Origin: Candidatus Uhrbacteria bacterium
GTDB lineage: Bacteria; Patescibacteriota; Patescibacteriia; JACRJV01
DNA length: 64,000 bases
Direction of reading: 5' to 3'
Assembly (NCBI GenBank): GCA_016215325.1
Contig: JACRJV010000026.1
Span: 31,955-95,954, forward strand
Shown here: in pieces, positions 2,907 to 58,622 of the stretch
How positions within the stretch are numbered: position 1 is the stretch's first letter
Layout: the number at the start of each line of letters is the position of its first letter
The notes under the pieces: generated by a model
What the model saw: only the letters and a program-made list of their open reading frames with translations
What the model was told of the DNA's origin: nothing
Database searches by the model: none
Position numbers and translations under genes: made by a program

Positions 2907-3563
2907 ATGTTGATATATGGCATCACCATGCAGGGGAAAAAGGAAGAAGTGCCCTCCGACGTTGCGGCATGGTTGGTTGATCGCATGAAAAAATATCCAA
3001 CGGTGGATTTTACAATTGATCGCGATGAAATGACGCGATTGAGTCCGCAACATCGAGAGCAAACGGCTGAGCTGATGAAGAAATTTTCTCGATTCTTTTA
3101 TCCCGAGCATAAGACGAGAGGAGAGAATGGTGTTCTTATAGTTGTCTTCCCGTACCAAAACGAAATATGGAGTGTACGGATCACCGGCGGCTTAGACGGC
3201 GAAGGAAATATCATTGGAAGGAGCGATCCTGAAATCAATACGAAGCTAAAACGACCGCTCCCTGCGCAACTGCGAAATGATATTGCAGGACTAACGGAAG
3301 AGAAAAATATTGAACAAGTCCAAGTCGGCGGCAACGAGGGCTTCAGGGCAAAAGTAAGAAGAGAAGATGAGCCATTGTTGAGCGAGCCAAGGGAGTTTTT
3401 TCCACTGCCGGCAGAACTCAAATGGTTATCGGAGATGACGATGAGCGGTGAACAATTCAATAATTTGATGAGTAGCCCCGAGAAAAAAGAGAGGGTAGTA
3501 AAGGCGTTGTACGAAAAAGATTGGGGTGCCTTACGAAAACTGAGAGGCGAGGAGTTGCCTTGA
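2907..3563 (+). CDS. hypothetical protein
   Basis: 218-aa ORF on the plus strand with protein-like composition, divergent from the VanW gene. No recognisable motif. Confidence 0.45.
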   Translation: MLIYGITMQGKKEEVPSDVAAWLVDRMKKYPTVDFTIDRDEMTRLSPQHREQTAELMKKFSRFFYPEHKTRGENGVLIVVFPYQNEIWSVRITGGLDGEGNIIGRSDPEINTKLKRPLPAQLRNDIAGLTEEKNIEQVQVGGNEGFRAKVRREDEPLLSEPREFFPLPAELKWLSEMTMSGEQFNNLMSSPEKKERVVKALYEKDWGALRKLRGEELP

Positions 3564-3617
3564 ATACAAAAACCAGCGCCCATCGGGTACGCTCAGCGCA
3601 TCTTTCGGCGTTTTTGT

Positions 3618-4493
3618 CTACCGTGAACGGACTTGGGCTTGACTCTTGGCCGACCGGCCGAACGCCGCGATCACATAGCCGGTGGTGTACGATGGGGATC
3701 CCCCGAGCTGGGCAGAGTTGACTACATCAAACACTTGCGCTGTTGTGGCCCCTCGGGCTTTGACAAAGGAGAGCAGCGCCGCAAGGCTCTGCTGGGAATC
3801 CGTGTCGACCAATTCCACCGCATCGACAGCAAGAGTTTTTAATAATTGCGCGCTCTTGCGCTCGCGGGCGGCGGCGGATTCTGCCGAATGATAATGCGAG
3901 AAGTCAATACTGGCGATCACGATTGCGTCCTTTGGCAACACCCGTGCAAGGGTCTTGCCCAATGCTTGGGCTTGGGCCACAGAATACGTCGAAGAGATCG
4001 CAATGGGGACAATCCGTGCCCCGGGGAATATCGCAGCAATCGGCTGCACTTGGGAATAGATGGAATGTTCAATGTTAAACAGTGCGGAGGTTTCTGGCAG
4101 CGGTACCTGCTGTTGGAGTGTTGTAATTGCTCCCCGATCCGCCTGCACAATCCCAAAGCGTGTTTGAAATGAATCGGTGGTCGTCACGATCGGCCACCCC
4201 CCAATGTCCTGGTGATTCGGCCCCAAGACCACAAACGTTCGCGGGCGAGTCAGAGCCGACAACCCCTTGTACAATGCAATGTTCAAGCCCATGGCATTGG
4301 GAATGTGATGGCTCACGATTGCGCCGTCCACGCGCGAGAATCCCAAAACAGAATACGGACGACGGCCACCGTTGTTGCGCGTGAGCAACCGCTCAACAAC
4401 CGAATCACGCACATCATGCACCCGCACGGCACGGGAAGGCAGTGCGGGTGCAGTGAGTACGATTGCGCTCAGCAGCACGGCAGAGAGCATCAT
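3618..4493 (-). CDS. MEMO1 family protein (AmmeMemoRadiSam system protein B-like) with predicted N-terminal signal peptide
   Basis: Motifs GPNH, EHS, SIDFSHYH match the MEMO1/LigB-like fold signature. N-terminus MMLSAVLLSAIVLTAPALPSRA is signal-peptide-like. The ATGA at 4490-4493 overlaps the stop of the upstream giant gene (translational coupling). Confidence 0.7.
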   Translation of the reverse strand: MMLSAVLLSAIVLTAPALPSRAVRVHDVRDSVVERLLTRNNGGRRPYSVLGFSRVDGAIVSHHIPNAMGLNIALYKGLSALTRPRTFVVLGPNHQDIGGWPIVTTTDSFQTRFGIVQADRGAITTLQQQVPLPETSALFNIEHSIYSQVQPIAAIFPGARIVPIAISSTYSVAQAQALGKTLARVLPKDAIVIASIDFSHYHSAESAAARERKSAQLLKTLAVDAVELVDTDSQQSLAALLSFVKARGATTAQVFDVVNSAQLGGSPSYTTGYVIAAFGRSAKSQAQVRSR

Positions 4494-7400
4494 TGGATGA
4501 CAAATGGATTATCCGGACCAAAGTTGTACTGATCGGGGTGCAGAATCCCGCGGATATTAGGGCCGTCTGCACGGAAGGTTCCTTGCTGGACCGCACGGGC
4601 ACGGTACACCACCGTCTGGGTGTTGCTGCCCCGCGGACCTTTGCCCACATGCAGGCGAACGATTTGGCCCTCGATTTCTTGGATGCCAACAATGCGCACG
4701 TCTTCGTCCTGCCGTCCCCCATCACCGAAATAGGTGATCGCGGAGGTGGGCTTGAGCCCTGAAGGCAAGTAGTCGGTGATCACATAGTCATTCTCCTCAC
4801 TACTCGGATCGATGCGATAGGTGAGGACCACATCCACCGTATCACCGACTCGCGTGACTGCCCCACCGCTGCTGCGATTACGATACCGGCGCTCAACCGA
4901 TAGTTTTGGATTGCGCGCCCCGTCATAGGTAACGGCCGGGAGGCGGGCGAACGAAACAACAGATGCAGAACCCTTGAGGTTCTTAATCGACAATTGTGAA
5001 AGTTCTTCCGCGGTGACTTCGACCGACTGATCACGCACCTGCCCATCCAGGCGCACGGCAATGGTGCGGGAACCGGCAACCAAATCAAACGTGGTCTCGG
5101 TCGATGGTGGCGCCGAAATACCCTGTGCGCGTACCCGAGCGGCTGCCCACAGCTCAAAATCGATCAAGTCTGAATCCCCTGCCCGTGCCTTACTATAGGC
5201 GTATTCAGAAAGCGCTTGGGCATCGGGGCTGCCAACAGCGATCGCCACGCTCACGGCCAATGCGCTCTGACGCAATGTCTGGACCTGATTGTCCCCGGGG
5301 ATCACGGCACTGGCGGCTTCGCGTGTAATCGATGGAGCAATGTGATCCTCAAAAATTGCCCGGGACTGATCGGTGGCACCCAAATTTTGGAAGCTTGCGG
5401 CAAGATAAATCCAATCTCCGACCGAAAGATCAGAACGCGAAGATAATTGCTCCAACTGTGGGAGGATTGCTGCCCGGACGGCGGAGAGGCCGTAGAATAC
5501 TTTTGCCGCAATGTGGACATCGCCAGTTTCTCCCGCTGCTATCTGTGAGAGCAAATATCGTTTTACCGACCCGGAATCATACAGGGTAGATTGGGGCAGA
5601 GCATTGACAAGACCAATGGTGGCATCCAAGTCACTGCTGCCATACGGCACGACAGCAACACCGCCATCCGGTTGTCTGTACGGGGTAATATCGGCCGTGT
5701 CCGCCGCGGGCGCGCTGCAGGACTGTTGGAAGTTCGGCAACAGTTCTTTGGCGACGCGGGGGCCCACCTCCCATTCGAGCCGCACGCCATCCGCATAGCA
5801 GGATTGCTGGAGATGGCTGACCAACGCGGCATCAGTTTGGTCGATAATGGTGAGTGTTGTGGTGCCGCTGGGGTTGCCCTTGATTGATAGTTTGCCGTCC
5901 TTGACCGATTGGCGATCCACTCGAAGTGCAACTTTATGCGAGCGGCGCACAGATATAACGCGCTCGATCGCATCGCGAAGCCCACCGGCAATGCCTTCAA
6001 TCGACACGCGGTGTTCCCCTTCAGGCAAAGCGCCCAAGGGAATATTGACCTGCGCAGTGCCGCTGACTGTTTTATCCAGGTTGAGCGTCGGACTTTTAAT
6101 GGAATATTGGACAGTGCTGGGGGGTTGCCCAGTGGCGGTTGCAGAGCGCACGACCATCACCGGTGCATCGCCCACAAGATACACTTCATTGAGAATCGAC
6201 CGGACAAAAAATGGCAAGTTGGTCGTAATCGATTTTATCGCAGACCCAAAATACAGATCACTGCTGGCCGCCTGCAACCGCACCCTCCAACCGGTGAGGT
6301 TGTCGGGCAGAGGAATCGTGAATTCGGTGCGTCCGTCGTTGTCGGTATCCTGCGTTGCCACAAATGCGGTATTCTTAAAATTCTTGCGTACATCCCCCAC
6401 CGGCAACCCACGGCTCCCATCCCCGCCCCCGCGTTCGGCACCCAACTGGTTGCCAGAAAACCCATACCGCAATTCAAACGGATGGGAAGTGCGCGTCTGG
6501 ATATCATAGACAAACCCGCGATAAGTTTCGGTCAGCACAGTATCGTCATACCCATAGAGGCTATAGAGTGCTTCGTCCACGAGGGTGAGTTCGGTGTTGG
6601 AAAGCTTGCCCTGCCCATCCGGCGTGGTCACCCGAGCGCGCGCCACGGCGCGATCCCCCGGGCGGTACGACGCTTTATCAAATTGGAGATCAATCGTGAG
6701 CTTGCGATCCTCCGTATCAAGCGAAAACGTGGCTTGCTCAATCCGTTGGAATCCCCGCGGCCCCCAAAATATTCCGCCGACCACCAACGTCGGGATGTCC
6801 CGCGCCAAAAATGTGTCTTTATAATTTGCTTCTGTTTGGACGGTGACGGATTCGATCCCAGAGCCCGATGCACGATATAGCAATACCTGCTGACCCGCGA
6901 TGGCAACCGGCTCGTTGCGTTCGTTAACGACCTGGGCTGTTATGGGCTGGCCGACCTTATAGAGTGCAGGAGTCCATTGGTCTTTACTATTGGCCAATAC
7001 CGGGTTCACGCGCAGATAACCGGGCTGTTGATCGGTGTCGCTCGATCGCAAGAACGAAGAAAAATACCACCCGGAAACATACCGATGCTCAAGAACCAGA
7101 CGGCCATTTGGGTCCACAGTCGAAAAACTCACTTTATACCAACCGTTTGTTTTTTTCACTGTCACAGAATAATCAACAGCCCCATTGCTATTGGTAAGCA
7201 AAGGGGGATGAGCCACCGCTACTTCTTCGACGCGCTCGACATACTCATGCACCGGATAGGTTGTCTTGGTAATAGGGTCAAACCGGCGTTCTTTGACGAC
7301 GGCTTCGGTCCAATGGTAATCAACGGTCACGTTGATTGTTGCATTTGCAAGCGGTGAGCCGACATAGTTCGTTTCGGCTGGTTTCGACAAATCGATCGTT

Positions 7401-10500: not shown

Positions 10501-12396
10501 TCACGCGCGCTCGAGCAGCTTGGCAGTCGGGTAGACTCGGAAGAGTTCGTGCTCATCCGGTACGCCCTTGAGGGCCACCGCCCCCATGGCCTCCACTCGG
10601 ATGAGCCCGTCGCGCTTGAGCGCCTGCACGCGCGGGCCCTCTCGGACAGCCTGGGACACGACCACATGGTCACCCAGTTCAAGGTCGACCTTGCCCTCAA
10701 GCCGTGCGGCGAAGTTGACGATCGAATTCATGATGTCAAACTGCCGCACAATGCTCGAGCCCAAGAAAACCGACCCATAGTGGAGCCCGAACCGAGCACG
10801 GAATGGGAGACCGCTTGTGTGGATCTCGTGCTGGGCCTGGAGCCAAGCCAGCACGCCGTCGCTGCGACGCCGAAACAAGGCCATGATGCCGTCGCCGGTG
10901 GTCTTGAGCACTGCCCCGTGGTAGCTCTCGACCCACTTCTCGAGGATGAGCATCGCTCTTCGGACCGTGATCGCCGCCTGGACTTGGTCTTGTGCCAGCG
11001 CCCAGAATGTCGTGGATTTCTCCAAGTCGCAGAAACCCACAGCCCCTGAACCCATCGACAGTCCGGCCACAACTTCCCACGGAAGGCACTCGCTGGGGAA
11101 GTTGTAGCGGAATTCGCCGAGCATGACGAGGTCCAATGCCGAGACCATGTCTACCCGCCAGGCCTCTTGCTCGATCACGACTACGGCTTTCTTGCCGGTA
11201 TAATTGACCAAGCAGAGTGTTTGGCGTGGGTAGGCGATCGAATGCTCTAACTTCACCTGATCTCCACGATGGAGCACCACAGTGAATAGGTCGCCGGGGT
11301 CTGATCCTGCGACGACCTCGAACCGTGATTCGGCCGAACTGCCGAGTACCCGGATCCGGTACCACCCTGATTCCAGTGGCGACGAAAACCGACGCATGAT
11401 TCCGTCGCACGCCACGTCCGGATCCAGCTCGAGCTCGAGCTGGATGTGCTGCGAGTGCATAGGGCTGGACAGACAGTGTGTCGGCTGCTGGGATCTCCGG
11501 GGCTTTGCGATGTTCGGATTCGCTCCGGCGACCACTTCCAGTGTCTGATGGAGTGTGAGCGGGTAACGCGCCGCGCACGACTCGCAAGGAACAACCGGGT
11601 TGATGGCCTTGAACGTTGTCTTGGTCTCCTTCACCCCACGACAACTCTGACAGATGCTGTCGTAGTGGATAGTGACCAAATCGCGCGTTGCCATCAGCAC
11701 GAGCGCTTTGAGCACAGCGTGCCAATCCAAGCCCTGAGCTTGCGCCCGCTCGCGTGGCCGAATGGTTTCGTAGGTCTCGAGCCATTCAACAATTGTATCC
11801 CAGAGCTTCGGCTCGATCTTCTGTTGCTCGATCACAAGCGCTTGTCGGGCCGCGGCGATCTTCTTTGCAGCGCCCCACCGCAACTTGCGGTGCTTGGGTG
11901 GCGAGGGCCGGCTGTTGATCTGCCAGTCGTAGATCCAGAACTGGATCTTGAACCGCAAGAGCACCACGCGCAGAAGCAGCCACCCAACCAGCCACAACAG
12001 GACGTTGGGCTGGTGGCACTCAAGTTGGTACTTGAGCAAGCTCCTGCACTTGGGCCGATCGGCGTTGTAGGGAAACCCCGTTAACTGCATCCGGGCCGTG
12101 AACATCTTTGCCCAGAGGATCGGAATGAACCAGAACAAGTAGACTGTGAAATCCTCCCGTCGGAACAAGAAGTACTGCTCACTCACCCACTCGGCTTTGC
12201 GCTCGACCCACTCGACGCGCAAGAACCGGCCGATGATCTTCTGGACCACGAGCGGCTCGAAGCCGACCCCTCGCTCGATCTTCTGGATGCCGTTGTCCTG
12301 GTTGAACTGCTCAGTGTCGGCCGACTTTGGCCAGAACATCCCGACCGTGGACCACAGCCATACCTGGATGGATGCCGAGATTTTTGTCGTGGACAT
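10501..12396 (-). CDS. membrane-anchored class III nucleotidyl (adenylate/guanylate) cyclase with central CxxC...CxxC zinc-ribbon-like segment; high-GC, probably horizontally acquired
   Basis: C-terminal catalytic domain motifs: FCDLEKSTTFW (metal Asp), AVLKTTGDGIMALF (second Asp and substrate Lys), NSIVNFAARLE (Asn/Arg). The N-terminus has about three TM helices. GC is about 60% with GC3-rich codons (GTC/GAC/CTC/AAG), against roughly 53% in the flanking DNA. Confidence 0.75.
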   Translation of the reverse strand: MSTTKISASIQVWLWSTVGMFWPKSADTEQFNQDNGIQKIERGVGFEPLVVQKIIGRFLRVEWVERKAEWVSEQYFLFRREDFTVYLFWFIPILWAKMFTARMQLTGFPYNADRPKCRSLLKYQLECHQPNVLLWLVGWLLLRVVLLRFKIQFWIYDWQINSRPSPPKHRKLRWGAAKKIAAARQALVIEQQKIEPKLWDTIVEWLETYETIRPRERAQAQGLDWHAVLKALVLMATRDLVTIHYDSICQSCRGVKETKTTFKAINPVVPCESCAARYPLTLHQTLEVVAGANPNIAKPRRSQQPTHCLSSPMHSQHIQLELELDPDVACDGIMRRFSSPLESGWYRIRVLGSSAESRFEVVAGSDPGDLFTVVLHRGDQVKLEHSIAYPRQTLCLVNYTGKKAVVVIEQEAWRVDMVSALDLVMLGEFRYNFPSECLPWEVVAGLSMGSGAVGFCDLEKSTTFWALAQDQVQAAITVRRAMLILEKWVESYHGAVLKTTGDGIMALFRRRSDGVLAWLQAQHEIHTSGLPFRARFGLHYGSVFLGSSIVRQFDIMNSIVNFAARLEGKVDLELGDHVVVSQAVREGPRVQALKRDGLIRVEAMGAVALKGVPDEHELFRVYPTAKLLERA

Positions 12397-12534
12397 CGTT
12401 GTCCTTCCTTCCCGCGGTCTCCCGCGAAATCGATGTGAACATTTCTAAAATCAAGGTGCTCAACGACACTCAGAAACCCCGCCGGCAATGCCGCCAGCGA
12501 AGCAAATGTTTATACCACAAAAATAACACCAGCG

Positions 12535-13265: not shown

Positions 13266-15071
13266 ATGCGATCGTTTATCCCCATCCGGGATTATCTGTT
13301 CATCGGCGACCTCTATTCGGCGGCCCTTGTTTCCAATACCGGATCCATCGACTGGCTTTGCTGGCCGAACTTCGACTCCCCGAGTCTGTTTGGGAAGCTG
13401 CTGGACAACGAACGTGGCGGCCGATTCGCCTTGGACCACCCGCAAGCGAACATCCAAACGCAGTACCTGGGCGATACGGCAGTGCTGGAACATATCGTGG
13501 ATGATCCAACGACCGGGTCGTTCCTTGTGCATGATTGTATGCTGCCGCAGCCCATCCAGCAATGCCCGAGCCACCTCCTTTGCCGCAACGTACAGACGCT
13601 CCATCAAGAGGCGCTCGTCCGTTTTGTCTTTGACCCACGACCAAACTTTGGGCAAGAGCATCCGGTTATGCAACAAGAACAGGACCGCCTTCGTTTTATG
13701 GATGGCCAAACGATGGTCGATCTCATCCTTCCCCCTATGGCAGAGGTGCGACAACAACCCAGTGGTTCATGGGGGATCACTCTGCCCTTGTCCGCACATC
13801 AACGATGCGCACTGGTCCTGGAATACCGTGATCACTCCCCATTTTCCTGCTATACCGGGCAAGATATCGAATCAGAAACAACAGAGTTTTGGCAGCAATG
13901 GGTGGCGCGCGGCCGTTACCCAACTTCGCGGCGCGCACAACTCGTCCGCAGCGCAATCACGCTCAAGCTCATGCAATATTACCCTACCGGCGCCCTTGTT
14001 GCCGCGCCCACCACGTCGTTGCCGGAATGTATCGGCGGGGGGCGGAATTGGGATTACCGCTATGTATGGATCCGTGATGCGACATCCACGATCTATGCAT
14101 TCTTAACGCTTGGGCATACCGAAGAAGCTAAACACTTCCTCCAATACATGGAGCGGGTCTTGCGTAAAGAACGAGATTGGAATCTGGATGTCATCTATAC
14201 GATTGAAGGGAACCGAGCACCCACAGAAAAAATCCTGGACCATTTGAGCGGATATCAGGATTCAGTCCCCGTGCGCGAAGGCAACGCCGCAACAGAACAA
14301 TTCCAACTCGATGTCTACGGCGCGCTCATTGACGCGATCTATTATTCGATTCGCAACGGCATTGAGCTCACCGATAATACGCGCTCCATGCTGTTGCGCC
14401 TGGCAGAACACATCCGCACGAAATGGCAACAACCGGACCATGGGTTCTGGGAAGCGCGCATCGGACCGCAACAGTATACCTACAGCAAGGTGATGTGCTG
14501 GGTAGGGATCGACCGCATCCTTCGACTCAACACGGAATTACAGTTAGACGCGAACCAGCAGGAGCAGTTCCATCAATTGCTCGAGACAATCCGACAATGG
14601 ATCTATACCCATTGTTTTGATGCACGCCGCAATATCTTCTATCAATTCGCCGGGGCACTTCACCATGATGCAACAACCATCTTGTTTGTCCTGCTGCAAT
14701 TCCTGGACCGATCGGATCCGCTGACGCGGTCCACAATCGAAGCCACTCGCAACGAACTAACATCCAACAATATTCTGCTGTATCGCTACCATGCTGATGA
14801 CGGAATAGAGGGCAACGAAGGGGTATTTTTGCTGCCCACGTTTTGGTTGATTTCGGCGCTATGCGTGTTGGGCGATACCGACCAAGCCGAGGCGCTCTTG
14901 CGATGGTTTGAAGGGATATTACCCGCGTCTGGCCTTATGGCAGAAGAAATGGAACCCACCACACAGGAATACCTCGGCAACTTCCCGCAGGCCTTCTCCC
15001 ATATCGGGTACATCATGGCGGCATCGTATATCCAGCGGTACCGGAATCGCGCCTCATCCCCTGACCGTTAA
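13266..15071 (+). CDS. glycoside hydrolase family 15 (glucoamylase/trehalase-like) protein (ORF from 13212)
   Basis: N-terminus IRDYLFIGDLYSAALVSNTGSIDWLCWPNFDSPSLF and the YRYVWIRDATSTIYAF catalytic motif are typical of GH15. Confidence 0.8.
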   Translation: MRSFIPIRDYLFIGDLYSAALVSNTGSIDWLCWPNFDSPSLFGKLLDNERGGRFALDHPQANIQTQYLGDTAVLEHIVDDPTTGSFLVHDCMLPQPIQQCPSHLLCRNVQTLHQEALVRFVFDPRPNFGQEHPVMQQEQDRLRFMDGQTMVDLILPPMAEVRQQPSGSWGITLPLSAHQRCALVLEYRDHSPFSCYTGQDIESETTEFWQQWVARGRYPTSRRAQLVRSAITLKLMQYYPTGALVAAPTTSLPECIGGGRNWDYRYVWIRDATSTIYAFLTLGHTEEAKHFLQYMERVLRKERDWNLDVIYTIEGNRAPTEKILDHLSGYQDSVPVREGNAATEQFQLDVYGALIDAIYYSIRNGIELTDNTRSMLLRLAEHIRTKWQQPDHGFWEARIGPQQYTYSKVMCWVGIDRILRLNTELQLDANQQEQFHQLLETIRQWIYTHCFDARRNIFYQFAGALHHDATTILFVLLQFLDRSDPLTRSTIEATRNELTSNNILLYRYHADDGIEGNEGVFLLPTFWLISALCVLGDTDQAEALLRWFEGILPASGLMAEEMEPTTQEYLGNFPQAFSHIGYIMAASYIQRYRNRASSPDR

Positions 15072-25091: not shown

Positions 25092-25877
25092 TTAATACTC
25101 CATCATAACACCTCTCTGCATCATTGGGGATGTAACCGGACGATCAAACCGATCGACGCGTCGATTGATCCGGCGAATCCCGCGCGCGGCAATCGTGCCG
25201 TCCATTCGCTTGCCCACAACCACCACCTCATCGCCGTCGATAAAAATCATTCCATCCGGCAAAATTGTTTTTTTGGTGATTACCACCGTCAACGGCATCC
25301 GATCATCCCATTCAAATGGATCCAACCGGAACTGATCTTGGCCATTCCATTGCGCCACAATTCCACGATACCCTTGGTGCAGCCCATAGAGTCGTCGATG
25401 CTGGTACATCATGCCCATGACCGGAACGCGCGAAACCAACCCTTGTTGCTCGAGGCGCTCATGGAGCCGCACACGGCGTATCCCCGCAGCCGCAATACCC
25501 ACAAATAGCAGTAGCGCCACCAACCCGATAATGACGGTCCGTCGGTACCCGCCAAAAAACGTCCGGCGGAAGAATTCGAGCAGGACAATGCCCGCCACGA
25601 CGATTACGATCGCGATCCATGGGGCAGAAACAATGAACTCTTCGACCCCGAGCAGACCCAACGCCAGCAACGACAACGACTGATTGATGGTCACCACAAA
25701 CACCACCCAACTGGCCGCATAGAGCACAACGGCCGCAAGCAACCCATAGCAAACGACGGCGACAACCTTAGTGAACTGGGCGCGCGTGCGCGTGCGCATG
25801 GTGACCTGGCCGTGTTCAATCGAGTCCATCACGCGGTCGACAATCGGCGGTTGATGCGTGGGTTGTTCAGACGTCAT
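25092..25877 (-). CDS. membrane protein, putative anti-sigma factor (by position)
   Basis: Directly follows the ECF sigma gene with a 4-bp overlap; multi-TM protein. The call rests on gene neighbourhood only. Confidence 0.4.
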   Translation of the reverse strand: MTSEQPTHQPPIVDRVMDSIEHGQVTMRTRTRAQFTKVVAVVCYGLLAAVVLYAASWVVFVVTINQSLSLLALGLLGVEEFIVSAPWIAIVIVVAGIVLLEFFRRTFFGGYRRTVIIGLVALLLFVGIAAAGIRRVRLHERLEQQGLVSRVPVMGMMYQHRRLYGLHQGYRGIVAQWNGQDQFRLDPFEWDDRMPLTVVITKKTILPDGMIFIDGDEVVVVGKRMDGTIAARGIRRINRRVDRFDRPVTSPMMQRGVMMEY

Positions 25878-26452
25878 AGCGTTATTCCTCGATTGCGAGC
25901 AATAGCTTGCACCATCGACCGTGCCCGATTAAGGCGGACACCAACAGTAGAAACGGGAATATGCAGAATATCCGAAATCTGGCCGTAACTCAAATCATCA
26001 TTATAATACAGCAAAAGCGGTTCACGATATTTTTCTGGCAACTCCTTGAGGCAGTCAAACACCGTATCGTTGAGCTCCGTGCGCAAGATATCGGCATCGG
26101 TCCGTTCTTTTGATATCGGATGGGGCAGCATCACGTCCCAATCCACCGCAAACACTAGTGCACGCTGCTTTTTGCGAAGGACGTTGACAAATTCATTATG
26201 CGCTATCCGATAAATCCATGGGGAAAAAACGCGGCGTGAATCGAATTCTTGGATGTGGGCGTAGGCTTTGATCATGACTTCCTGCACCACATCTTCTTGT
26301 TCTTCCCGCGAGGAAAAGAAAGTTCTGGCATAGCGCAGGAGCTTGGGCGTGAACCGTTCGACAAGCTGGCGGAATGCAAAATGGCTCCCGCGCTGGACTG
26401 CTCGAGCAAGTTGTTCGTCGGGTAATGCTGCGTAGTCGGACGGCGAATCCAT
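25874..26452 (-). CDS. ECF-type RNA polymerase sigma-70 factor
   Basis: Region 2 VQEVMIKAYAHIQEFD...FSPWIYRIAHNEFVNVLRK and a region 4 HTH are present. Confidence 0.8.
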   Translation of the reverse strand: MDSPSDYAALPDEQLARAVQRGSHFAFRQLVERFTPKLLRYARTFFSSREEQEDVVQEVMIKAYAHIQEFDSRRVFSPWIYRIAHNEFVNVLRKKQRALVFAVDWDVMLPHPISKERTDADILRTELNDTVFDCLKELPEKYREPLLLYYNDDLSYGQISDILHIPVSTVGVRLNRARSMVQAIARNRGITL

Positions 26453-26556
26453 AGCGGTGTTTGATACCTATTACACCAAAACTTCTATTTTGTTTCAAAT
26501 CCAAAAAACCAGCAGCGCAGATGCTGCTGGTTTTTATCCCTAGCGGTCGAAGTCTG

Positions 26557-27810
26557 TTACGCATAGGCCTCCTCACCATGCTGGCTGACATCCAGACCAT
26601 GCCCCTCTTCTTCCTTGCTGACACGCACCGGTGTCATCCAATTGGTAATCTTGAGCAATAGGTACGACCCACAGAAGGCAAACGCAGCAACAACCACCGA
26701 GGCGATCAGTTGGGCCATAAACTGCTTGGGGTTACCGTAGAACCAGCCGTTGGCGCCTGCGGAGTTCACGGCGAGCGTGGCAAAGAGTCCGGTTGCTAAC
26801 GCCCCCCAGACGCCGCTGATGCCATGGCAAGCAAATACATCCAGCGAGTCGTCGAGTTGTGTCCGCGTTGTCCGCCAATGCGCAACGAGGTTAGAAAGCA
26901 CCCCCGCGACCAGCCCGATCAAAATGGCAGCACCCACACCCACATACCCCGATGCTGGAGTAATGGCAACGAGCCCACAGACCGCGCCCACAGAAATTCC
27001 GACCGCCGATGGCTTGCCAAGCTTTATCCAATCCGTGATCATCCAGCTCACCGCAGCGGCAGCAGCGGCTAAATTGGTGACCACCAAGGCCGAGACCGCT
27101 AAACCATTTGCTGCTAAGGCGCTGCCCGAGTTAAACCCAAACCATCCAAACCATAGCAGTGCCGTTCCTAAAATCACAAAGGGGATGCTGTTAGGCTTAA
27201 ACTCAATGGGCTGGCCATTTTTGTAATCATGGCGCTTACCGATAAAAATCGCCGCCGCCAAGGCAGAAAACCCCGCCGCAATATGCACCACCGTCCCTCC
27301 CGCAAAATCAATCGCCCCAACAGCCTTGAGCCAACCCGCGGGGTTCCAAACCCAATGCGCAACCGGAGCGTAGATCAGGGTTGCCCATAACACGATAAAC
27401 AACAGCAGTGCTTTAAATCGAATGCGTTCCGCAAATGCGCCAATAATCAGTGCAGGAGTGATGGCCGCAAACTTGAGTTGAAAAAAGAAGAAGAGCAATT
27501 CAGGAATCGTTGCGGCATAGCCTGGGTTGGCGGCAGCGCCAACGCCCGTTAACGCGAATAATGAAAGGTCTCCGATCCAACCGCGCACCGATGGGCCAAA
27601 GGCCAGGGAATATCCCCACAACGCCCACACCAAACTCACAACAGCAAAAATCACAATGCACTGCACTAATGTCGAAACAAGATTTTTTTTGCGCACCAGC
27701 CCTGCATAGAAGAATCCTAATGCGGGCGTCATCAGCATAACCAGTGCGGAGGAGGTCGATACCCAGGCAATGTCTCCGGAATTTAATGCATCCATAGGCA
27801 ATGAGGTCAT
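26557..27810 (-). CDS. amt: ammonium transporter Amt (ORF to 27891; start at 27810 or 27795 is more likely, given the leader structures)
   Basis: Classic Amt TM architecture and motifs (FAGLVRKKN, DFAGGTVVHI, GALATGLFA). Confidence 0.85.
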   Translation of the reverse strand: MTSLPMDALNSGDIAWVSTSSALVMLMTPALGFFYAGLVRKKNLVSTLVQCIVIFAVVSLVWALWGYSLAFGPSVRGWIGDLSLFALTGVGAAANPGYAATIPELLFFFFQLKFAAITPALIIGAFAERIRFKALLLFIVLWATLIYAPVAHWVWNPAGWLKAVGAIDFAGGTVVHIAAGFSALAAAIFIGKRHDYKNGQPIEFKPNSIPFVILGTALLWFGWFGFNSGSALAANGLAVSALVVTNLAAAAAAVSWMITDWIKLGKPSAVGISVGAVCGLVAITPASGYVGVGAAILIGLVAGVLSNLVAHWRTTRTQLDDSLDVFACHGISGVWGALATGLFATLAVNSAGANGWFYGNPKQFMAQLIASVVVAAFAFCGSYLLLKITNWMTPVRVSKEEEGHGLDVSQHGEEAYA

Positions 27811-27823
27811 TGAACGATAAAAC

Positions 27824-27889
27824 AAAAAATCCTCAGTGTACAAAACAGAGGACTCCATTGTCCAGGGGCTCGCAGGCACTCCATTGTGC
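27824..27889 (-). promoter_or_regulatory. ANTAR-type dual hexaloop RNA motif overlapping a weak terminator-like hairpin and U-run in the amt 5' leader
   Basis: On the minus strand, the RNA GCAC-AAUGGA-GUGC and GGAC-AAUGGA-GUCC are two hairpins with hexaloops carrying A1 and G4. The 3' arm of the second overlaps stem UCCUC...GAGGA, followed by UUUUUUGUUUU. Confidence 0.5.
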
Positions 27890-27954
27890 ACATCGGGATG
27901 GTTTGCTCTTCCATTACGCTAGCACAGAGAAAATTTTTGCGTCAATGGGGATAA

Positions 27955-28683
27955 CTATTGCGCAATCTCGCTGGCAGTGACAATCGCTTCGGCAACTTCC
28001 TTCAGGCTCTTGCGTAAATCCATACTCTTCTTAAGCAGGAGTTGGTGCGCTTGCGGTTCGGTGAGGGAATACTCTCGCATGAGGATCCCCTTGGCGCGTT
28101 CAATAACTTTGCGCAATTCCAAGGCATCTTTGAGCGTGTTGGTTTCGGAAGACAATCGTGCCATTTCGATCGCCCCCGCCACTTGCCGAGCGATAATTTC
28201 CAAAAATGCAATGGTCTCTTTCGAGTAGCCATGCCGCCTCCGGTGCTGAATATTAATCACTCCAACAACGCGCTTCTGATCTAAAATAGGGATGGAACAA
28301 ATGGCCTCGTACCGATCTTCGGGCAGTGCGGTAAAGACCTTAAACCGATCATCCTGGTAGGCGCGGGCGCCGAGTGCCACCGCCTGTTGATGTTCGGCCA
28401 CCCACCCGGTGATCCCCTCGCCTTTCTTGAGTTGGATGTGACCCAAGACACGCGCGTGCGGGTTCTGCGATGCTTCGAGCACAAGTATGTCCTCGCGCAG
28501 AAGATAAATAAAGCAGGAATCCGCCTGCACGTAGGCATTAACCACGCGGATAATCGAATCGAGCACGTCTTTGAGCGTCCGATCCCAGCGGTACGCGATG
28601 GTTTCACTGATGGCGCGTAATATGGCAATCTCCTTTTCCCGCTGTTTGAGCTTTGCTTTATAATACCCAATGTCTTTGGTCAT
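27955..28683 (-). CDS. GAF and ANTAR domain-containing RNA-binding antiterminator-type regulator
   Basis: N-terminal GAF; C-terminal ANTAR helix pattern ERAKGILMREYSLTEPQAHQLLLKKSMDLRKSL. Confidence 0.8.
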   Translation of the reverse strand: MTKDIGYYKAKLKQREKEIAILRAISETIAYRWDRTLKDVLDSIIRVVNAYVQADSCFIYLLREDILVLEASQNPHARVLGHIQLKKGEGITGWVAEHQQAVALGARAYQDDRFKVFTALPEDRYEAICSIPILDQKRVVGVINIQHRRRHGYSKETIAFLEIIARQVAGAIEMARLSSETNTLKDALELRKVIERAKGILMREYSLTEPQAHQLLLKKSMDLRKSLKEVAEAIVTASEIAQ

Positions 28684-32146: not shown

Positions 32147-32221
32147 TGGCTCCGGGGGTGGGATTCGAACCCACGACCAAGAGATTAACAGTCTCCTGCG
32201 CTACCGCTGCGCTACCCCGGA
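32147..32221 (-). tRNA. tRNA-Asn (anticodon GUU)
   Basis: Cloverleaf with 7-bp acceptor stem tccgggg/ccccgga, anticodon loop cuGUUaa, T-loop GGTTCGAATCC, 3' discriminator G plus CCA. Confidence 0.85.
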
Positions 32222-33617: not shown

Positions 33618-35450
33618 TCATGCCGGGTGAGCGGAAAGCTCCCGTGTGAGTTGTACTGCGCGCTCAAGTAACGTATTCAAATGGTCAGTTTCTGCCGGCG
33701 GTTGACCGGAATGCTCAATTGCATTCAACTCTCTTTGAATCCGCTCTAATTCCTGCTGAAAATACCGGCGGCGGATAAGCCGCGCCAGGCGCTCAAGCTC
33801 GCGCGTTCGATCGACGATTTCAAGATGATGGTACAACTCCTCCGCGGCTGTGATGACGCGGGCGTACAATGGAGTTCCTTGGGGTATTTGTTCCATCTGC
33901 CCTTGCGGCTCCTGTGTCCCATACCATGCCCGAAACTCTTCCTGGCTTAACATTGTTGGCTCAACAATGCGTTTAACGGCACCCGAAAATTCTGGCCCAA
34001 GTAGCAATAACAATCCCATAAACGCGTGCTCAATGTCAAGGGATGCACGGTCTGCCTTCTGGGGATAATTGTCCTTTGGTCCGGCCGCGGCGGCAGAAAC
34101 CGCGGGCAGGCGAATCGATTGGATCCATTGCACGATCGCAGGTTGGGAATATCCCAGCGTATCGGCCAATGTTTTAATCCAAAATGATTGTTCCAACGGG
34201 TTTTTGATTTGGGCCAAAATGGGTAAAAATTCTTTCCCAATCTTTTCTTGCGTCGGCAATGCAGAAACATCCAACCCCTGTGTTACCCGCTGCCACAGTA
34301 CCTCCACAAATGGCCGGAATTGCGCGGACACCTGCTTCCAAACGCCCGCATCATTGCGGATACACTCGTCGGCGTCTTTGCCCAGCCCTTCGGGGATGGT
34401 GAGCATGCCGATCTTGAACTCCGACCGAAGCAGCAGCTCAATCCCCCGTTTGGCCGCTGCAGCGCCAGCCAAATCCATGTCAAAACTAAGGACCACGCGC
34501 TGCGTAAACCGCTTGAGCAATTGGAGATGTTCCAGAGTGAGCGCCGTGCCGCAGGTGGCAACTGCGTTGGCGACCCCTGCCTGGTGCGACGCAATCACAT
34601 CCATGTACCCCTCCAAGATGATCACGCTATTGGCAGAACGGATGGCCATCTTTGCCTGATCGATCCCATACAATACCGTCCGCTTATCATAGAGGATAGT
34701 TTGCGGCGTATTCATGTACTTTGCTTCCTCCACAACAGCGCGGGTGTTGGGCGTTGCGGCGGCCGCGCTGGGCAGAATCCTCCCGCCAAAGCCCACCAAC
34801 ATCCCCCGCGCGTCGCGGATCGGGAACATGATGCGGCCCCGGAACCGGTCGTAATAGGGTGTGGGGAAATTGCCGCGACTGCCAGCCGGGCGTTCGATCA
34901 CCAGCCCGCTGTCCAAAATATCAACGGGATCAAGCTGTTGGACACTCAAATATTGCGATAGATTATCCCAACCACTGGGTGCATACCCCACTTGCCACGC
35001 CCCAAGGGTCTCGGGCTGAATCGCCCGGGTGCCGGTCATATACTCCCATGCCAGGCGATTATTGGCGGGCTGTAATTGTTGCTGGTACCATTGGAATGCC
35101 GTTTCTAACACCCTGGTAACACGCTCTTTTTTACTGGCGCTTGCTCCGGCAGATTGGCGTTCTGGCAGTGTGACGCCCGCTTTTTGGGCCAACATCTTGA
35201 GCGCTTCGGGGAATTCGATATTTTCGATTTTCATCACAAACGAAAAATGATCCCCGCCTTCGCTGCAGCCAAAGCAGTGCCACACCTGCTTGGTCTGGCT
35301 AACCATAAAGGAGGGACTCTTTTCTTCGTGGAAGGGACAGCGCGCTTTCCAGCTACTTCCTGCCTGTGCCAGGGTGCCCACATATTCGCGGATAAGCTCC
35401 ACGATATCCAGCCGGGATTTAATTTCTTCGGTCGGAGTCATACAGTTCAC
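33618..35450 (-). CDS. dnaG: DNA primase
   Basis: N-terminal zinc-binding [30 protein letters not shown] and the TOPRIM motif EGYMDVIA. Confidence 0.9.
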
Positions 35451-36559: not shown

Positions 36560-37570
36560 TTAATACGGATCGATCGGGCGAATCGGTGGCGACCCGTCTA
36601 AAACCGTGATTGTCATTCCTGAATTATCTGGTTGCCGGCCATCAAATGTCCGTGCCTGAGGATCCCCATTGGATGTATCAGAGGGAATGTCGATATTATT
36701 TGGATTGCCCTGGAAGTCTCCGCCGGTATCATGGAAATAAACGTAGAAGTCCCGCGCCTCATGCGCTTGGTTCTGATTATTCACCCACTTTCTAACATTA
36801 ACCTTGGCCCATTTCCCAAATAACGGCGAGTCCCTTCCGACTGCGCCAGAAACATAGTTACACTCCCCGCGATACAACATTTCTAATGTACAGACCCCCT
36901 CCTTACCTGCAGCCGGTGGTGTGGCAGAATTGCCTATCCTTCCCTCCGTTGTCGCCGGTCCATCACCATCAACAGGCCAGTAATGCGTAACTCGATAGGG
37001 TTTCCCATCCGCAGCATTTGTTGAAATCGCCTCCCCCCATTCCCCGGCTCGACCCCCTCGGATATTGCGAGCGCCTCCTCCACTGCCACCACCACCAATG
37101 CGACTGACTGGTTTTATCCCCACCTCTGGTTTTTTTGCCTCAATCGAATTCTTGACCTCCGGGAACTTAATAGGCCCAAGCAATGTCAGGTCCGGATTGA
37201 TGGTATTCAGTATCAGAACACTGCTTAACGCAATGCCCAGGCCGATGATCGCCTCCCACATCATGTCCCCGCTTGTTTTGACGCGATCCGCATTGCCCGC
37301 GGCCACAACCCTTGTAATACCGGCGATGATAATCATCACCAGCGCCGTCACACCGGCTACTGGCACTAAAAACGTAACTAACCCCTCAATCAAATTTGCG
37401 ACCCCATTGCCGCTTTCATCCACCAGGTCGGTGAGTTTAAGATTGGGATTGTTAAAATCGATCTTGGAAACCGATTGTGCCCAGACAAAGCTGGGAATGG
37501 CCAGGAGCCAGGTTCCAGTGGCCAGGGCGATACGGTGGGGACGACGCATACAAAAAATCCCAAATGCCAA
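36560..37570 (-). CDS. secreted T4SS-pilin-like N-terminal module fused to a 3D (MltA/Rpf-like) domain; paralogue of 35447..36484 (start may be 37549)
   Basis: The N-terminal module is alignable with the neighbour (VAGVTALVMIIIAGITRVVAAGNADRVKTSGDMMWEAIIGLGIALSSVLILNTINPDL). C-terminal AVGRDSPLFGKWAKVNV ... DTGGDF ... IDI is the 3D-domain signature. Confidence 0.6.
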   Translation of the reverse strand: MAFGIFCMRRPHRIALATGTWLLAIPSFVWAQSVSKIDFNNPNLKLTDLVDESGNGVANLIEGLVTFLVPVAGVTALVMIIIAGITRVVAAGNADRVKTSGDMMWEAIIGLGIALSSVLILNTINPDLTLLGPIKFPEVKNSIEAKKPEVGIKPVSRIGGGGSGGGARNIRGGRAGEWGEAISTNAADGKPYRVTHYWPVDGDGPATTEGRIGNSATPPAAGKEGVCTLEMLYRGECNYVSGAVGRDSPLFGKWAKVNVRKWVNNQNQAHEARDFYVYFHDTGGDFQGNPNNIDIPSDTSNGDPQARTFDGRQPDNSGMTITVLDGSPPIRPIDPY

Positions 37571-56989: not shown

Positions 56990-58510
56990 TCAATCAGCAT
57001 CGTTCAGCTGGAAGTCTTTGTACAACTCAAGCTCTTTCATTATTGGACCGAGGATTTGGTCTGCTTTCCGCCGCGACAAGTTAAACGATTGCCATGTTGA
57101 ACGATCGGGTGAATCGATCTGTCGAGCCCGCCAATACAACTGGTGACCGACCGATTTCCGCACCTCTTCATTGGACATCGTTAAGAGCGGTACCAGGTCC
57201 GGTAGAGCATCACTCGAAAGCTCCAACAAATAAAACGCATCAAACTTCCCTGTGGCCGAAAATCGCTCAATGTTGCGACGCACGATAAACGCATCGGGAT
57301 TCAGTATATTCATCGACACCAGAAACAGTGCTATCGAAACAAATACTCGAAACGCAAATGCATTTTCTCGGTTATCGTTGTGCATCTTATACAGTAATAA
57401 ACAGAAAACGACTGCGAGCAAGATGATAAACGCATGGCTATATAATCGGAGGGTGGTCAGCCCGTACGCTTCTTCATAGAGTGACAAACGACGTACGGCA
57501 GAAGCCATAATAAGCATGACTTGGACTACAAGGGCGGTGCCGAGGATTTTGAAGCCGATCGCATGGCGCATTTCTCTTTTAAGGACATACTGGTCGAGAG
57601 CGAGCAGAAGTAACAAGGAGATAATCGCGACCGTAATCAACTCAAAAAATCCCCGTCGCGCATATTCCGCATACGTTAAACCCAGGTCAGCCAGGGCAAT
57701 CCCTCCTCCAAAAAGATATGTTAACTGAACAAGGATAAACAGAAAAAAAAGACCATTCACTGAACCGAGGAGAATAGAACTTTCTATTTGGCCAAGGCCG
57801 TAGTTTGTACTATTGTCCTCCATGGTAGTCTGATCATTCTTTTCCGACAATAAATAGGAATACGCGCCAATGAAAATGAGTGTGACAACCAACACCAGGA
57901 TCCCGCGAGCAATCACTTCTTCTTCAATATGAAACGCGATCAGATCCGATACATATTTTTGGAATACTAAATCTGCTGAGGAGAACAGGAGTGCGAAGAT
58001 GACGAAAACAGGCACTGTGATCAACAAACCCTTAACAACCTGCGATGCTATTTTCCCATCATTATATGCCCGCCGCAGCAAAAACAACGCAGACAAGGTG
58101 GGGATAATCCGACGGATAAACGCAAAGGGAAGGGAGAAGATTGATAGGTAATCTCTAATTAAAAATTTTTTTATATTCTGCCCAAAAGACACTTCATTAA
58201 TGATCAATAACAGTAGTAGTGAAGCGACAATGTTGAGAAATGTGAGAAGACCGCTTGAACGGACAAACACCATTGTGCTGAAAAAAATAAGCGGCATCAA
58301 AAGCCAAAGGACATCCGAATTTACCGGTTTATGTATAGAGCGTGCAATGCCAAATACCCCGAGAACCACCAACGTAACGTAGATCGGGAAAGAAATGCCG
58401 GGAACTTTTTCAACAAAGAAATAATTAAATAGCAATCCCAACAACAACGATATTCCGACCACGAGCCCGGTACTAGATAACGGATTTGCTTGCGGATGTT
58501 GTCTATCCAT
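56990..58510 (-). CDS. large polytopic membrane protein of unknown function (ORF track extends to 58624 across the tRNA-Ser; trimmed to Met MDRQHP)
   Basis: About 500 aa with at least 10 TM helices. Confidence 0.5.
   Translation of the reverse strand: MDRQHPQANPLSSTGLVVGISLLLGLLFNYFFVEKVPGISFPIYVTLVVLGVFGIARSIHKPVNSDVLWLLMPLIFFSTMVFVRSSGLLTFLNIVASLLLLLIINEVSFGQNIKKFLIRDYLSIFSLPFAFIRRIIPTLSALFLLRRAYNDGKIASQVVKGLLITVPVFVIFALLFSSADLVFQKYVSDLIAFHIEEEVIARGILVLVVTLIFIGAYSYLLSEKNDQTTMEDNSTNYGLGQIESSILLGSVNGLFFLFILVQLTYLFGGGIALADLGLTYAEYARRGFFELITVAIISLLLLLALDQYVLKREMRHAIGFKILGTALVVQVMLIMASAVRRLSLYEEAYGLTTLRLYSHAFIILLAVVFCLLLYKMHNDNRENAFAFRVFVSIALFLVSMNILNPDAFIVRRNIERFSATGKFDAFYLLELSSDALPDLVPLLTMSNEEVRKSVGHQLYWRARQIDSPDRSTWQSFNLSRRKADQILGPIMKELELYKDFQLNDAD

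Positions 58511-58532: not shown

Positions 58533-58622
<90 letters not shown>

Follow-up and report, generated by a model that had tools for sequence, protein, structure and literature searches.

A GAF-ANTAR regulator gene and a conserved dual-hairpin leader upstream of the ammonium transporter gene amt in a Candidatus Uhrbacteria bacterium

The regulator gene, the leader and amt

The stretch of DNA analysed here (the window) comprises 64,000 nt of contig JACRJV010000026.1 from a Candidatus Uhrbacteria bacterium. It contains amt, which encodes an ammonium transporter, and an upstream gene for a regulator that joins a GAF domain to an ANTAR RNA-binding domain. The original prediction proposed that the leader between the two genes carries a pair of ANTAR-type hairpins and that the regulator controls amt by antitermination. 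All features of this putative switch lie on the minus strand, and coordinates without a sign below refer to that strand.

The regulator is a one-component protein of 242 aa (27955..28683), 100% identical to the NCBI entry 'ANTAR domain-containing protein [Candidatus Uhrbacteria bacterium]'. Pfam places a GAF domain (GAF_2/GAF) at residues 35-173 and an ANTAR domain (PF03861) at residues 183-235, the latter with 73.3 bits against a cut-off of 27.3; domains and coordinates both agree with the claim that a GAF-ANTAR gene precedes amt on the same strand. In the AlphaFold2 (AF2) model (mean predicted local distance difference test score, pLDDT, 85.9; predicted template modelling score, pTM, 0.71), an N-terminal helix is followed by the GAF fold, a 50-residue helix (155-205) and two helices (209-223 and 227-241) that form the ANTAR domain. 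A C-terminal helical ANTAR domain thereby stands after a long helix leaving the sensor domain. No second homologue of the regulator was detected in the window by tblastn with the regulator as query.

By both sequence and predicted fold, the GAF domain is closest to the GAF domains of PtsP, also called enzyme I-Ntr (EI-Ntr), which belongs to the nitrogen phosphotransferase system. A profile of the regulator family searched against the PDB retrieved at the top the GAF-only structure 3e0y from Geobacter (2e-34) and the PtsP GAF structures 3ci6 (1.5e-27) and 3trc (8.4e-21); the ANTAR proteins 6wsh, 1s8n, 4akk and 1qo0 match the ANTAR region of the regulator and rank behind these GAF-only structures. 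The best NCBIfam match is likewise PtsP (PRK11061, 1.2e-17). Foldseek ranks the PtsP GAF structures 3trc/3ci6 first to third for the AF2 model (template modelling score 0.88, root-mean-square deviation ~2 Å, 26-27% identity), followed by the cyclic AMP (cAMP)-bound GAF domain of Lcd1 and GAF domains of phosphodiesterases. The motifs (D/V)xC-x-IYL and EG(I/L)(T/V)G are shared with PtsP, and the motif D55-S56-C57 is invariant in the regulator family. The output of the regulator differs from that of PtsP, being an ANTAR RNA-binding domain and not a phosphoenolpyruvate-dependent phosphotransferase, and ligand binding by its GAF domain is presumed from homology.

The regulator gene ends with the stop codon TAG at 27957..27955, and a likely amt promoter follows at 27916..27945, consisting of a -35 hexamer TTGACG (27945..27940), an 18-nt spacer (27939..27922) and an extended -10 element TGcTAGCGT (27924..27916). 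The promoter was assigned from its consensus and from alignment with relatives, in which TTGAC and TGnTAGnnT align (L167, L164, L165 and L081), and the transcription start is likely to lie accordingly. An automatic promoter scan omitted 27916..27945; its calls nearby (27983..27954 and 27864..27835) overlap the 3' end of the regulator gene or the second hairpin and are not conserved.

Downstream of this promoter lie the two predicted hairpins, at the place where they had been reported. The first, P1 (GCAC-AAUGGA-GUGC, 27876..27889, -3.8 kcal/mol), is identified by sequence and covariation; a 12-nt linker (27875..27864) leads to the second, P2 (GGAC-AAUGGA-GUCC, 27850..27863, -4.0 kcal/mol), which is identified by sequence and by the covariance models described below. 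Both loops are the hexanucleotide AAUGGA, with A at position 1 and G at position 4. P2 runs into an intrinsic terminator (27819..27856, -10.2 kcal/mol), whose stem GGAGUCCUC/GAGGAUUUU forms, by sequence and folding energy, a hairpin at 27856..27826 followed by the U-tract UUUUUUGUUUU (27829..27819). In the terminator core, UCCUC (27852..27848) pairs with GAGGA (27834..27830). As proposed, the 3' arm of P2 overlaps this competing stem: all four of its bases lie inside the 5' arm of the terminator, and the two folds (-10.2 kcal/mol for the terminator, -4.0 kcal/mol for P2) are mutually exclusive. The generic terminator scan allows loops of at most 8 nt, and hence the leader terminator is not among its calls. 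P2 ends 55 nt upstream of the amt start codon, clear of any ribosome-binding site.

The amt gene (26557..27795) encodes a protein of 412 aa that matches PF00909 over positions 1-399 of 399 (425.5 bits) and NCBIfam TIGR00836 with 455.8 bits (cut-off 343.3), and its C-terminal region is typical (...EEEGHGLDVSQHGEEAYA). The start codon is most likely ATG 27795, with ATG 27810 possible; the resulting beginning, MDALNSGD, is common to the window, L167 and L164, and the L164 orthologue is called at 412 aa. The 444-aa frame listed originally, the longest one found mechanically, begins at GTG 27891 and runs into the leader; we rejected this start as an artefact, since the conserved start is ATG 27795.

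Conservation and covariation of the leader

We gathered 172 related loci (L001-L172) and mapped the regulator, Amt, GlnA and PII in them by tblastn. Eighty loci came from species-representative genomes and 80 from metagenomes, retrieved with a search alignment of 37 protein homologues. These scans were dominated by acidobacterial homologues and missed the closest relatives, so the remaining 12 loci were fetched through exact look-ups of the closest regulator homologues.

The tblastn maps revealed three arrangements among single-GAF homologues of ~240 aa, mainly in lineages of the candidate phyla radiation (CPR). The order regulator-amt is found in the window, in L167/L168 (regulator 72% and Amt 88% identical to those of the window), in L164 (67% and 84%), and in L081 and L082. 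The order regulator-amt-glnA is found in L165/L166 from Doudnabacteria. The synteny of the regulator with amt that the original prediction called for is therefore present in these relatives. The order regulator-glnA is found in L001, L003-L005, L007-L011, L015, L021, L025, L026, L037, L084, L086, L104, L112, L115, L122, L125, L170 and L171. In most relatives, glnA and not amt is the target gene of the module.

More importantly, the RNA element itself is conserved in more than 30 related loci, mostly from Patescibacteria/CPR, and the two hexaloop hairpins thus recur in orthologous leaders. All leaders between the regulator and amt or glnA share the same architecture. P1 is a stem of 4-6 bp with variable sequence (GCAC/GUGC, GUAC/GUAC, UUC/GAA, UUGC/GCAA, CCGC/GCGG, CCAC/GUGG or AAAC/GUUU) and a loop AAnGnn. 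P2 has the form (A)GAC-[A/G]nnGnn-GUC(U), and a terminator hairpin with a U-tract starts inside it. G at position 4 is invariant in both loops, and A at position 1 is invariant in P1 and mostly kept in P2, with a few G. In a curated set of 24 leaders, the terminator takes at least two bases of the P2 3' arm in 22 and is always more stable than P2.

A scan with a regular expression for dual hexaloops was dropped in favour of covariance models for being too unspecific (3 sites in the window against 2.1 expected; 30 in the loci against ~21). The first model, R1, was seeded with 18 leaders. A MAFFT alignment of the 24 curated motifs had split the P1 3' arm in six sequences with short linkers, and these six were kept out of the seed; most of them were later recovered by the model. 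R1 scores 35.9 bits at the window element. It also recovered leaders outside its seed in L012, L006, L002, L030, L037, L008, L021, L112, L122, L087 and L088, as well as in L167/L168, L170 and L171/L172. All non-seed matches are on the strand that encodes the neighbouring genes. They stand directly upstream of glnA or amt, except in L030, where the match precedes the regulator gene, and in L088, where the neighbour was not identified. In a search of ~738 kb of the loci, those titled Acidobacteriota or Terriglobia gave no R1 match at E<1.

Base pairing in the element is maintained by compensatory change. In an alignment of 30 leaders, which was fitted to the model and therefore favours pairing, 95.9% of pairs are standard, compared with 77.7% in shuffles and 27-52% with slid partners, and double-sided changes occupy 52 cells against 13.7 in shuffles; the variety of P1 stems is also visible in the raw sequences. 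Compensatory changes occur in four of the five P1 pairs, with 97% of cells paired and the closing C-G invariant. In P2, the core GAC/GUC stays unchanged in 28-30 of the 30 leaders.

The seed of the second model, R2, consisted solely of 13 glnA leaders; amt leaders and the window were kept out of it. R2 nevertheless detects the window element at 27849..27890 with 24.6 bits and E ~1.2e-3 (a rough calibration), which is the only significant match in 128 kb of searched strand with filters off (the runner-up has an E of 0.3). All five amt leaders of the relatives are found by R2 as well. The same model gave no match in L161 and L169, two loci in which the regulator gene stands as an orphan.

The position of the RNA relative to its neighbours is also informative. 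More than 25 loci, belonging to several CPR lineages and one Anaerolineales contig, have the regulator gene no more than ~200 nt away from the RNA. The gene order varies: glnA comes before the regulator in L002 and 2-3 kb downstream of it in L006, L012 and L087. In L002 (2526..2559), L006 (6994..7032) and L012 (7642..7679), the RNA accompanies glnA and not the regulator; in the last two, other genes intervene between the regulator and the RNA-glnA unit.

Homologues from Acidobacteriota/Terriglobia are very abundant (L013-L080 and most of L090-L160), and tblastn matches in them cover only query residues ~36-240. We set them outside the module: some lie 1-2 kb from amt-glnB, yet no dual-hairpin motif precedes their amt, and no dual-hexaloop element could be recognised close to any of these homologues. 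Variants of the layout also occur. In L026, a Patescibacteria contig of 491 kb, two tandem GAF-ANTAR paralogues (3255..3953 and 4001..4660) precede glnA and its one ANTAR leader. In L030, a dual hairpin with terminator (3646..3682) stands upstream of the GAF-ANTAR gene itself, which is followed by an open reading frame (ORF) of 533 aa that is not glnA; this layout suggests autoregulation in some lineages. In L161-L163 and L167-L168, the regulator is preceded by a conserved ORF of 103 aa without a Pfam match, and an asparaginase-domain gene lies further upstream, with a 562-aa ORF, also without a Pfam match, between the two in L161-L163. The asparaginase-domain gene is a further nitrogen-related neighbour of the regulator in relatives, one that the window lacks.

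Directly 5' of the -35 hexamer of the amt promoter lies a box, TTATCCCCA (27946..27954), that resembles a DnaA box. It is kept as TTATCC(A/C)CA in L164, L165, L167, L081, L003, L004, L005, L010, L011 and L086, and there, too, the nonamer adjoins the 5' side of the -35 TTGAC in the promoter of amt or glnA. The 8-mer of the box occurs nine times in the window against 3.2 expected. The nonamer is also found at 58099..58107(-), 34060..34068(-), 37114..37122(+) and 13276..13284(+), and the copy at 58099 likewise sits next to a -35-like hexamer that is paired with a good -10. In these CPR bacteria, the nonamer may serve as a binding site for a transcription factor or as an element upstream of promoters.

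Proposed switch and competing explanations

Taken together, the domains of the regulator, the RNA architecture, its conservation and covariation, the overlap of P2 with the terminator and the synteny form the basis for an ANTAR switch, and from them we infer that the protein binds the RNA and does so as a dimer, in which direction the switch responds, what the ligand is and where transcription starts. We consider it likely, with good confidence, that the adjacent GAF-ANTAR regulator controls amt by antitermination according to nitrogen status. The antitermination part of the original prediction thereby gains strong support from sequence comparison, namely conservation, covariation, the R2 test and synteny.

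In the mechanism that we propose, amt would be transcribed from its own promoter just past the regulator stop codon. By default, the leader of ~100 nt would fold into the intrinsic terminator, and transcription would halt before amt. When active, the GAF-ANTAR protein, probably as a dimer, would grip the hexaloops of P1 and P2 through its ANTAR domains; closed P2 would then sequester the GUCC needed for the 5' arm of the terminator, and RNA polymerase would continue into amt. The GAF domain would set the activity of the regulator. Because this domain is of the PtsP/EI-Ntr type, the likeliest signal would be the level of glutamine and/or 2-oxoglutarate. RNA binding would be favoured under nitrogen limitation, with the regulator either ligand-free at low glutamine or bound to 2-oxoglutarate.

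Several observations weigh against this proposal. Two of the nearest homologues of the regulator, in L161-L163 (73% identical) and L169 (68%), lie more than 3-4 kb from any amt or glnA, and in L161 and L169 the RNA motif is missing over that distance as well; the regulator and its target need not be neighbours, and the true partner could be a different ANTAR protein of the genome. The terminator core is short, with five strong pairs and a loop of 12-13 nt. The assignment of a ligand rests on domain homology at 26-27% identity. Folding of the whole leader, one of the checks suggested at the outset, gave a structure no better than shuffles (z -0.82), and the minimum-energy fold is a different long hairpin; we set this fold aside as uninformative for a switch that is stabilised by a protein. 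A second suggested check came out negative too: Rfam returned no relevant match for the whole window at gathering score or for 27700..28050 at E<=10, the presence of an ANTAR-target model in Rfam 15 being unconfirmed. The permissive search of 27700..28050 gave only a chance match to NsiR1 (E 6.1), and neither the glutamine riboswitch (glnA RNA) nor any other nitrogen-related cis-RNA of Rfam matched the leader. We do not count the Rfam result as refuting the prediction, since conservation was established independently. Finally, a generic scan (4-bp stems, AxxGxx loops, linker of at most 25 nt) found three sites in the window, where shuffles lead one to expect 2.1. The bare pattern, the fold and Rfam are thus all uninformative, and therefore the case rests on the comparative evidence.

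Among the competing explanations, the one that survives best accepts the switch as described and changes only its signal, the GAF ligand being something other than glutamine or 2-oxoglutarate: a cyclic nucleotide, cyclic di-GMP (c-di-GMP), a redox signal received through the invariant Cys57, or nitrate/nitrite. GAF domains accept many ligands, and the later fold matches of the regulator include the cAMP-bound GAF domain of Lcd1 and those of phosphodiesterases. There is a weak match to the nitrate sensor NreA (E 0.0056), c-di-GMP is bound by NasT (PMC10783516), and D55-S56-C57 is invariant. Against such ligands stand the PtsP GAF domains as the nearest relatives in sequence and fold, and the identity of the controlled genes, amt and glnA being those expected to answer to glutamine or 2-oxoglutarate. 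EI-Ntr's GAF domain binds glutamine, which inhibits autophosphorylation, in Sinorhizobium, E. coli and Caulobacter (PMC4848567). Because the GAF domain of the regulator is PtsP/EI-Ntr-like and that of EI-Ntr binds glutamine, its role as a reader of nitrogen status has indirect support by analogy. By the same homology, glutamine, or the balance of glutamine and 2-oxoglutarate, would be the most economical ligand hypothesis, which we regard as plausible at somewhat under even chances; a different ligand is a real possibility, about one in three in our estimation.

It is improbable that the leader is a genuine ANTAR target read by a different ANTAR protein encoded elsewhere, for example a receiver-ANTAR protein such as NitR or GnfR, with the adjacent GAF-ANTAR protein serving other targets. 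The orphan GAF-ANTAR genes without a nearby target in L161 and L169 would fit this, as would the fact that the characterised nitrogen-related ANTAR systems are all of the receiver type. ANTAR domains are, however, reported to share one RNA specificity (PMC7496416), the regulator gene keeps its place close to the RNA in more than 25 loci, and tblastn found no other homologue of it in the window.

Still less probable is control of translation in place of termination, in the manner of actinobacterial ANTAR targets that overlap start sites. Such targets are described in bioRxiv 10.1101/660928 and in Figure S3 of PMC3369931. P2 of the window, by contrast, stops 55 nt short of the start codon and touches no ribosome-binding site, and a hairpin with a U-tract overlaps P2 in 22-23 of the 24 leaders.

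The weakest explanation, that the hairpins are a chance match and that the hairpin with its U-tract either terminates the GAF-ANTAR gene upstream or attenuates without regulation, can draw on the roughly 2.1 generic patterns per 64 kb expected by chance (3 in the window), on a leader fold not above shuffles and on the silence of Rfam, but it is scarcely credible and already refuted by conservation, given the covariation across 30 leaders, the detection by R2 without any amt leader, the conserved -35/-10 between the regulator stop codon and P1, and the RNA that moves with glnA and not with the regulator in L002, L006 and L012.

Neighbouring genes, known systems and significance

Downstream of amt, the terminator scan reports a terminator at 26510..26526, CAGCAGCATCTGCGCTGCTG followed by a T-rich sequence, and therefore amt is a single-gene unit. 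Past this terminator, directly downstream of amt, lies a gene for an extracytoplasmic function (ECF)-type sigma factor (Sigma70_r2 and r4_2; 25874..26452(-)). The start of a 261-aa ORF without a Pfam match (25092..25877(-)) overlaps the stop codon of the sigma-factor gene, and its product may be an anti-sigma factor. Over the whole window, Rfam at gathering score matches nothing but two tRNA genes, at 32150..32221(-) and 58538..58622(-).

Two further candidate ANTAR sites, at 12390..12426(-) and 12284..12338(-), were rejected and are treated as chance matches (E 0.18-0.65 with R1 and R2). At 12390..12426(-), a P2-like hairpin, GGAC-AACGAU-GUCC, contains the AUG of a 631-aa ORF with DUF5939 and adenylate/guanylate cyclase domains, and the element in the place of P1 is a tetraloop. 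This is probably a chance match, even though actinobacteria are known to have ANTAR sites overlapping start codons.

No PII gene was detected in the 64 kb by tblastn with E. coli GlnB and GlnK (best E 0.18), in agreement with the claim that the window has no glnK; the same GlnB query does detect PII in acidobacterial loci, at 55-62% identity. Likewise, no PII gene stands next to amt in L164, L165, L167, L081 and L082. The module resembles the amtB-glnK operon in that an Amt-family transporter would be regulated by nitrogen status, and differs from it in having no PII gene adjacent or within 64 kb and in a control that would act on transcript elongation and not by plugging the channel. GlnK blocks AmtB post-translationally, and attenuation of transcription is no substitute for that level of control. 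The further suggestion that ANTAR control replaces PII control is unsupported: the absence of PII covers the window and five related amt loci, and elsewhere, namely in Geobacter and Desulfotomaculum, PII is present alongside ANTAR leaders (PMC3369931 Table S2, PMC2995071).

The original prediction also overstated how distinctive such a leader is. ANTAR control of nitrogen-assimilation genes is established. Ramesh et al. predicted ANTAR RNA upstream of genes for ammonium transporters, PII and glutamine synthetase in 2012 (PMC3369931), and in Table S2 of that work ammonium transporter occurs 18 times and glutamine synthetase occurs 25 times. In Geobacter sulfurreducens, GnfK/GnfR acts on terminator leaders that include those of nifH, glnK and amtB (PMC2995071); leaders thus occur there at both amtB and glnK, while the window has no glnK nearby. 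In Clostridium saccharobutylicum, according to a citation in PMC6316151, NitR induces the glutamine synthetase/glutamate synthase (GS/GOGAT) genes. As with GnfR and NitR, the ANTAR protein proposed for the window would relieve premature termination in nitrogen-assimilation leaders. GnfR and NitR are described as two-component response regulators activated by phosphorylation, whereas the regulator here is a single polypeptide with a presumed GAF sensor.

At the level of the RNA, the leader shares with the EutV/eut, NasR/nasF and AmiR/amiE leaders (PMC3369931) the tandem short hairpins, the short linker and the hexaloops with A at position 1 and G at position 4. As in published ANTAR leaders, P2 shares bases with an intrinsic terminator and the ANTAR protein is encoded nearby (PMC3369931). 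The two hexaloops, short stems, short linker and overlap with a terminator are what that work gives as defining the class. Figure S1 of the same work gives GCAC-AACGGC-GUGC ... GAGC-AAAGAA-GCUC for the eutS seed of E. faecalis and ACAC-AAUGGC-GUGU ... GGC-AAAGGA-GCC for that of eutP, and P1 of the window is nearly identical to the eutS P1. The one systematic difference in the RNA is the P2 stem, GAC/GUC here and AGC/GCU in the published seed. Unlike the EutV, NasR and AmiR systems, the present one has a GAF input in place of a receiver, pseudo-receiver or NIT domain, belongs to Patescibacteria/CPR, and is known from its sequence.

GAF-ANTAR proteins were called uncharacterised in 2012 (PMC3369931) and were not among the characterised one-component ANTAR proteins in 2020 (PMC7496416); a 2025 review lists only the architecture. 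We found no description in the literature of a GAF-ANTAR/amt-glnA module in CPR bacteria. What is new is thus the pairing of a one-component, PtsP-type GAF input with an ANTAR target, conserved across CPR lineages. The finding of an ANTAR switch at amt overturns nothing. With this locus and its ~30 relatives, the GAF-ANTAR class gains a target RNA and a regulon (amt and glnA), both of them predicted, as well as a ligand hypothesis that can be tested. The system is small, a 242-aa protein and an RNA of ~70 nt, and its reconstitution in vitro or in a heterologous host is feasible.

CPR bacteria cannot be grown in pure culture, and few of their regulatory circuits can be read as clearly as this one. 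Because the same module drives glnA or amt-glnA in related Patescibacteria, the regulator and leader look like a compact regulator of ammonium assimilation in small Patescibacteria genomes. A broader reading, which we put forward only tentatively and hold to be rather unlikely as it stands, is that the PtsP-type GAF-ANTAR protein of ~240 aa is the main, perhaps the only, nitrogen regulator of Patescibacteria/CPR. It would sense glutamine/2-oxoglutarate itself, as a direct readout of nitrogen status, and turn on amt and glnA by antitermination, the genomes concerned having lost PII, NtrBC and the like. If true, this would be a minimal nitrogen-control circuit and would give the large GAF-ANTAR class its first ligand and function.

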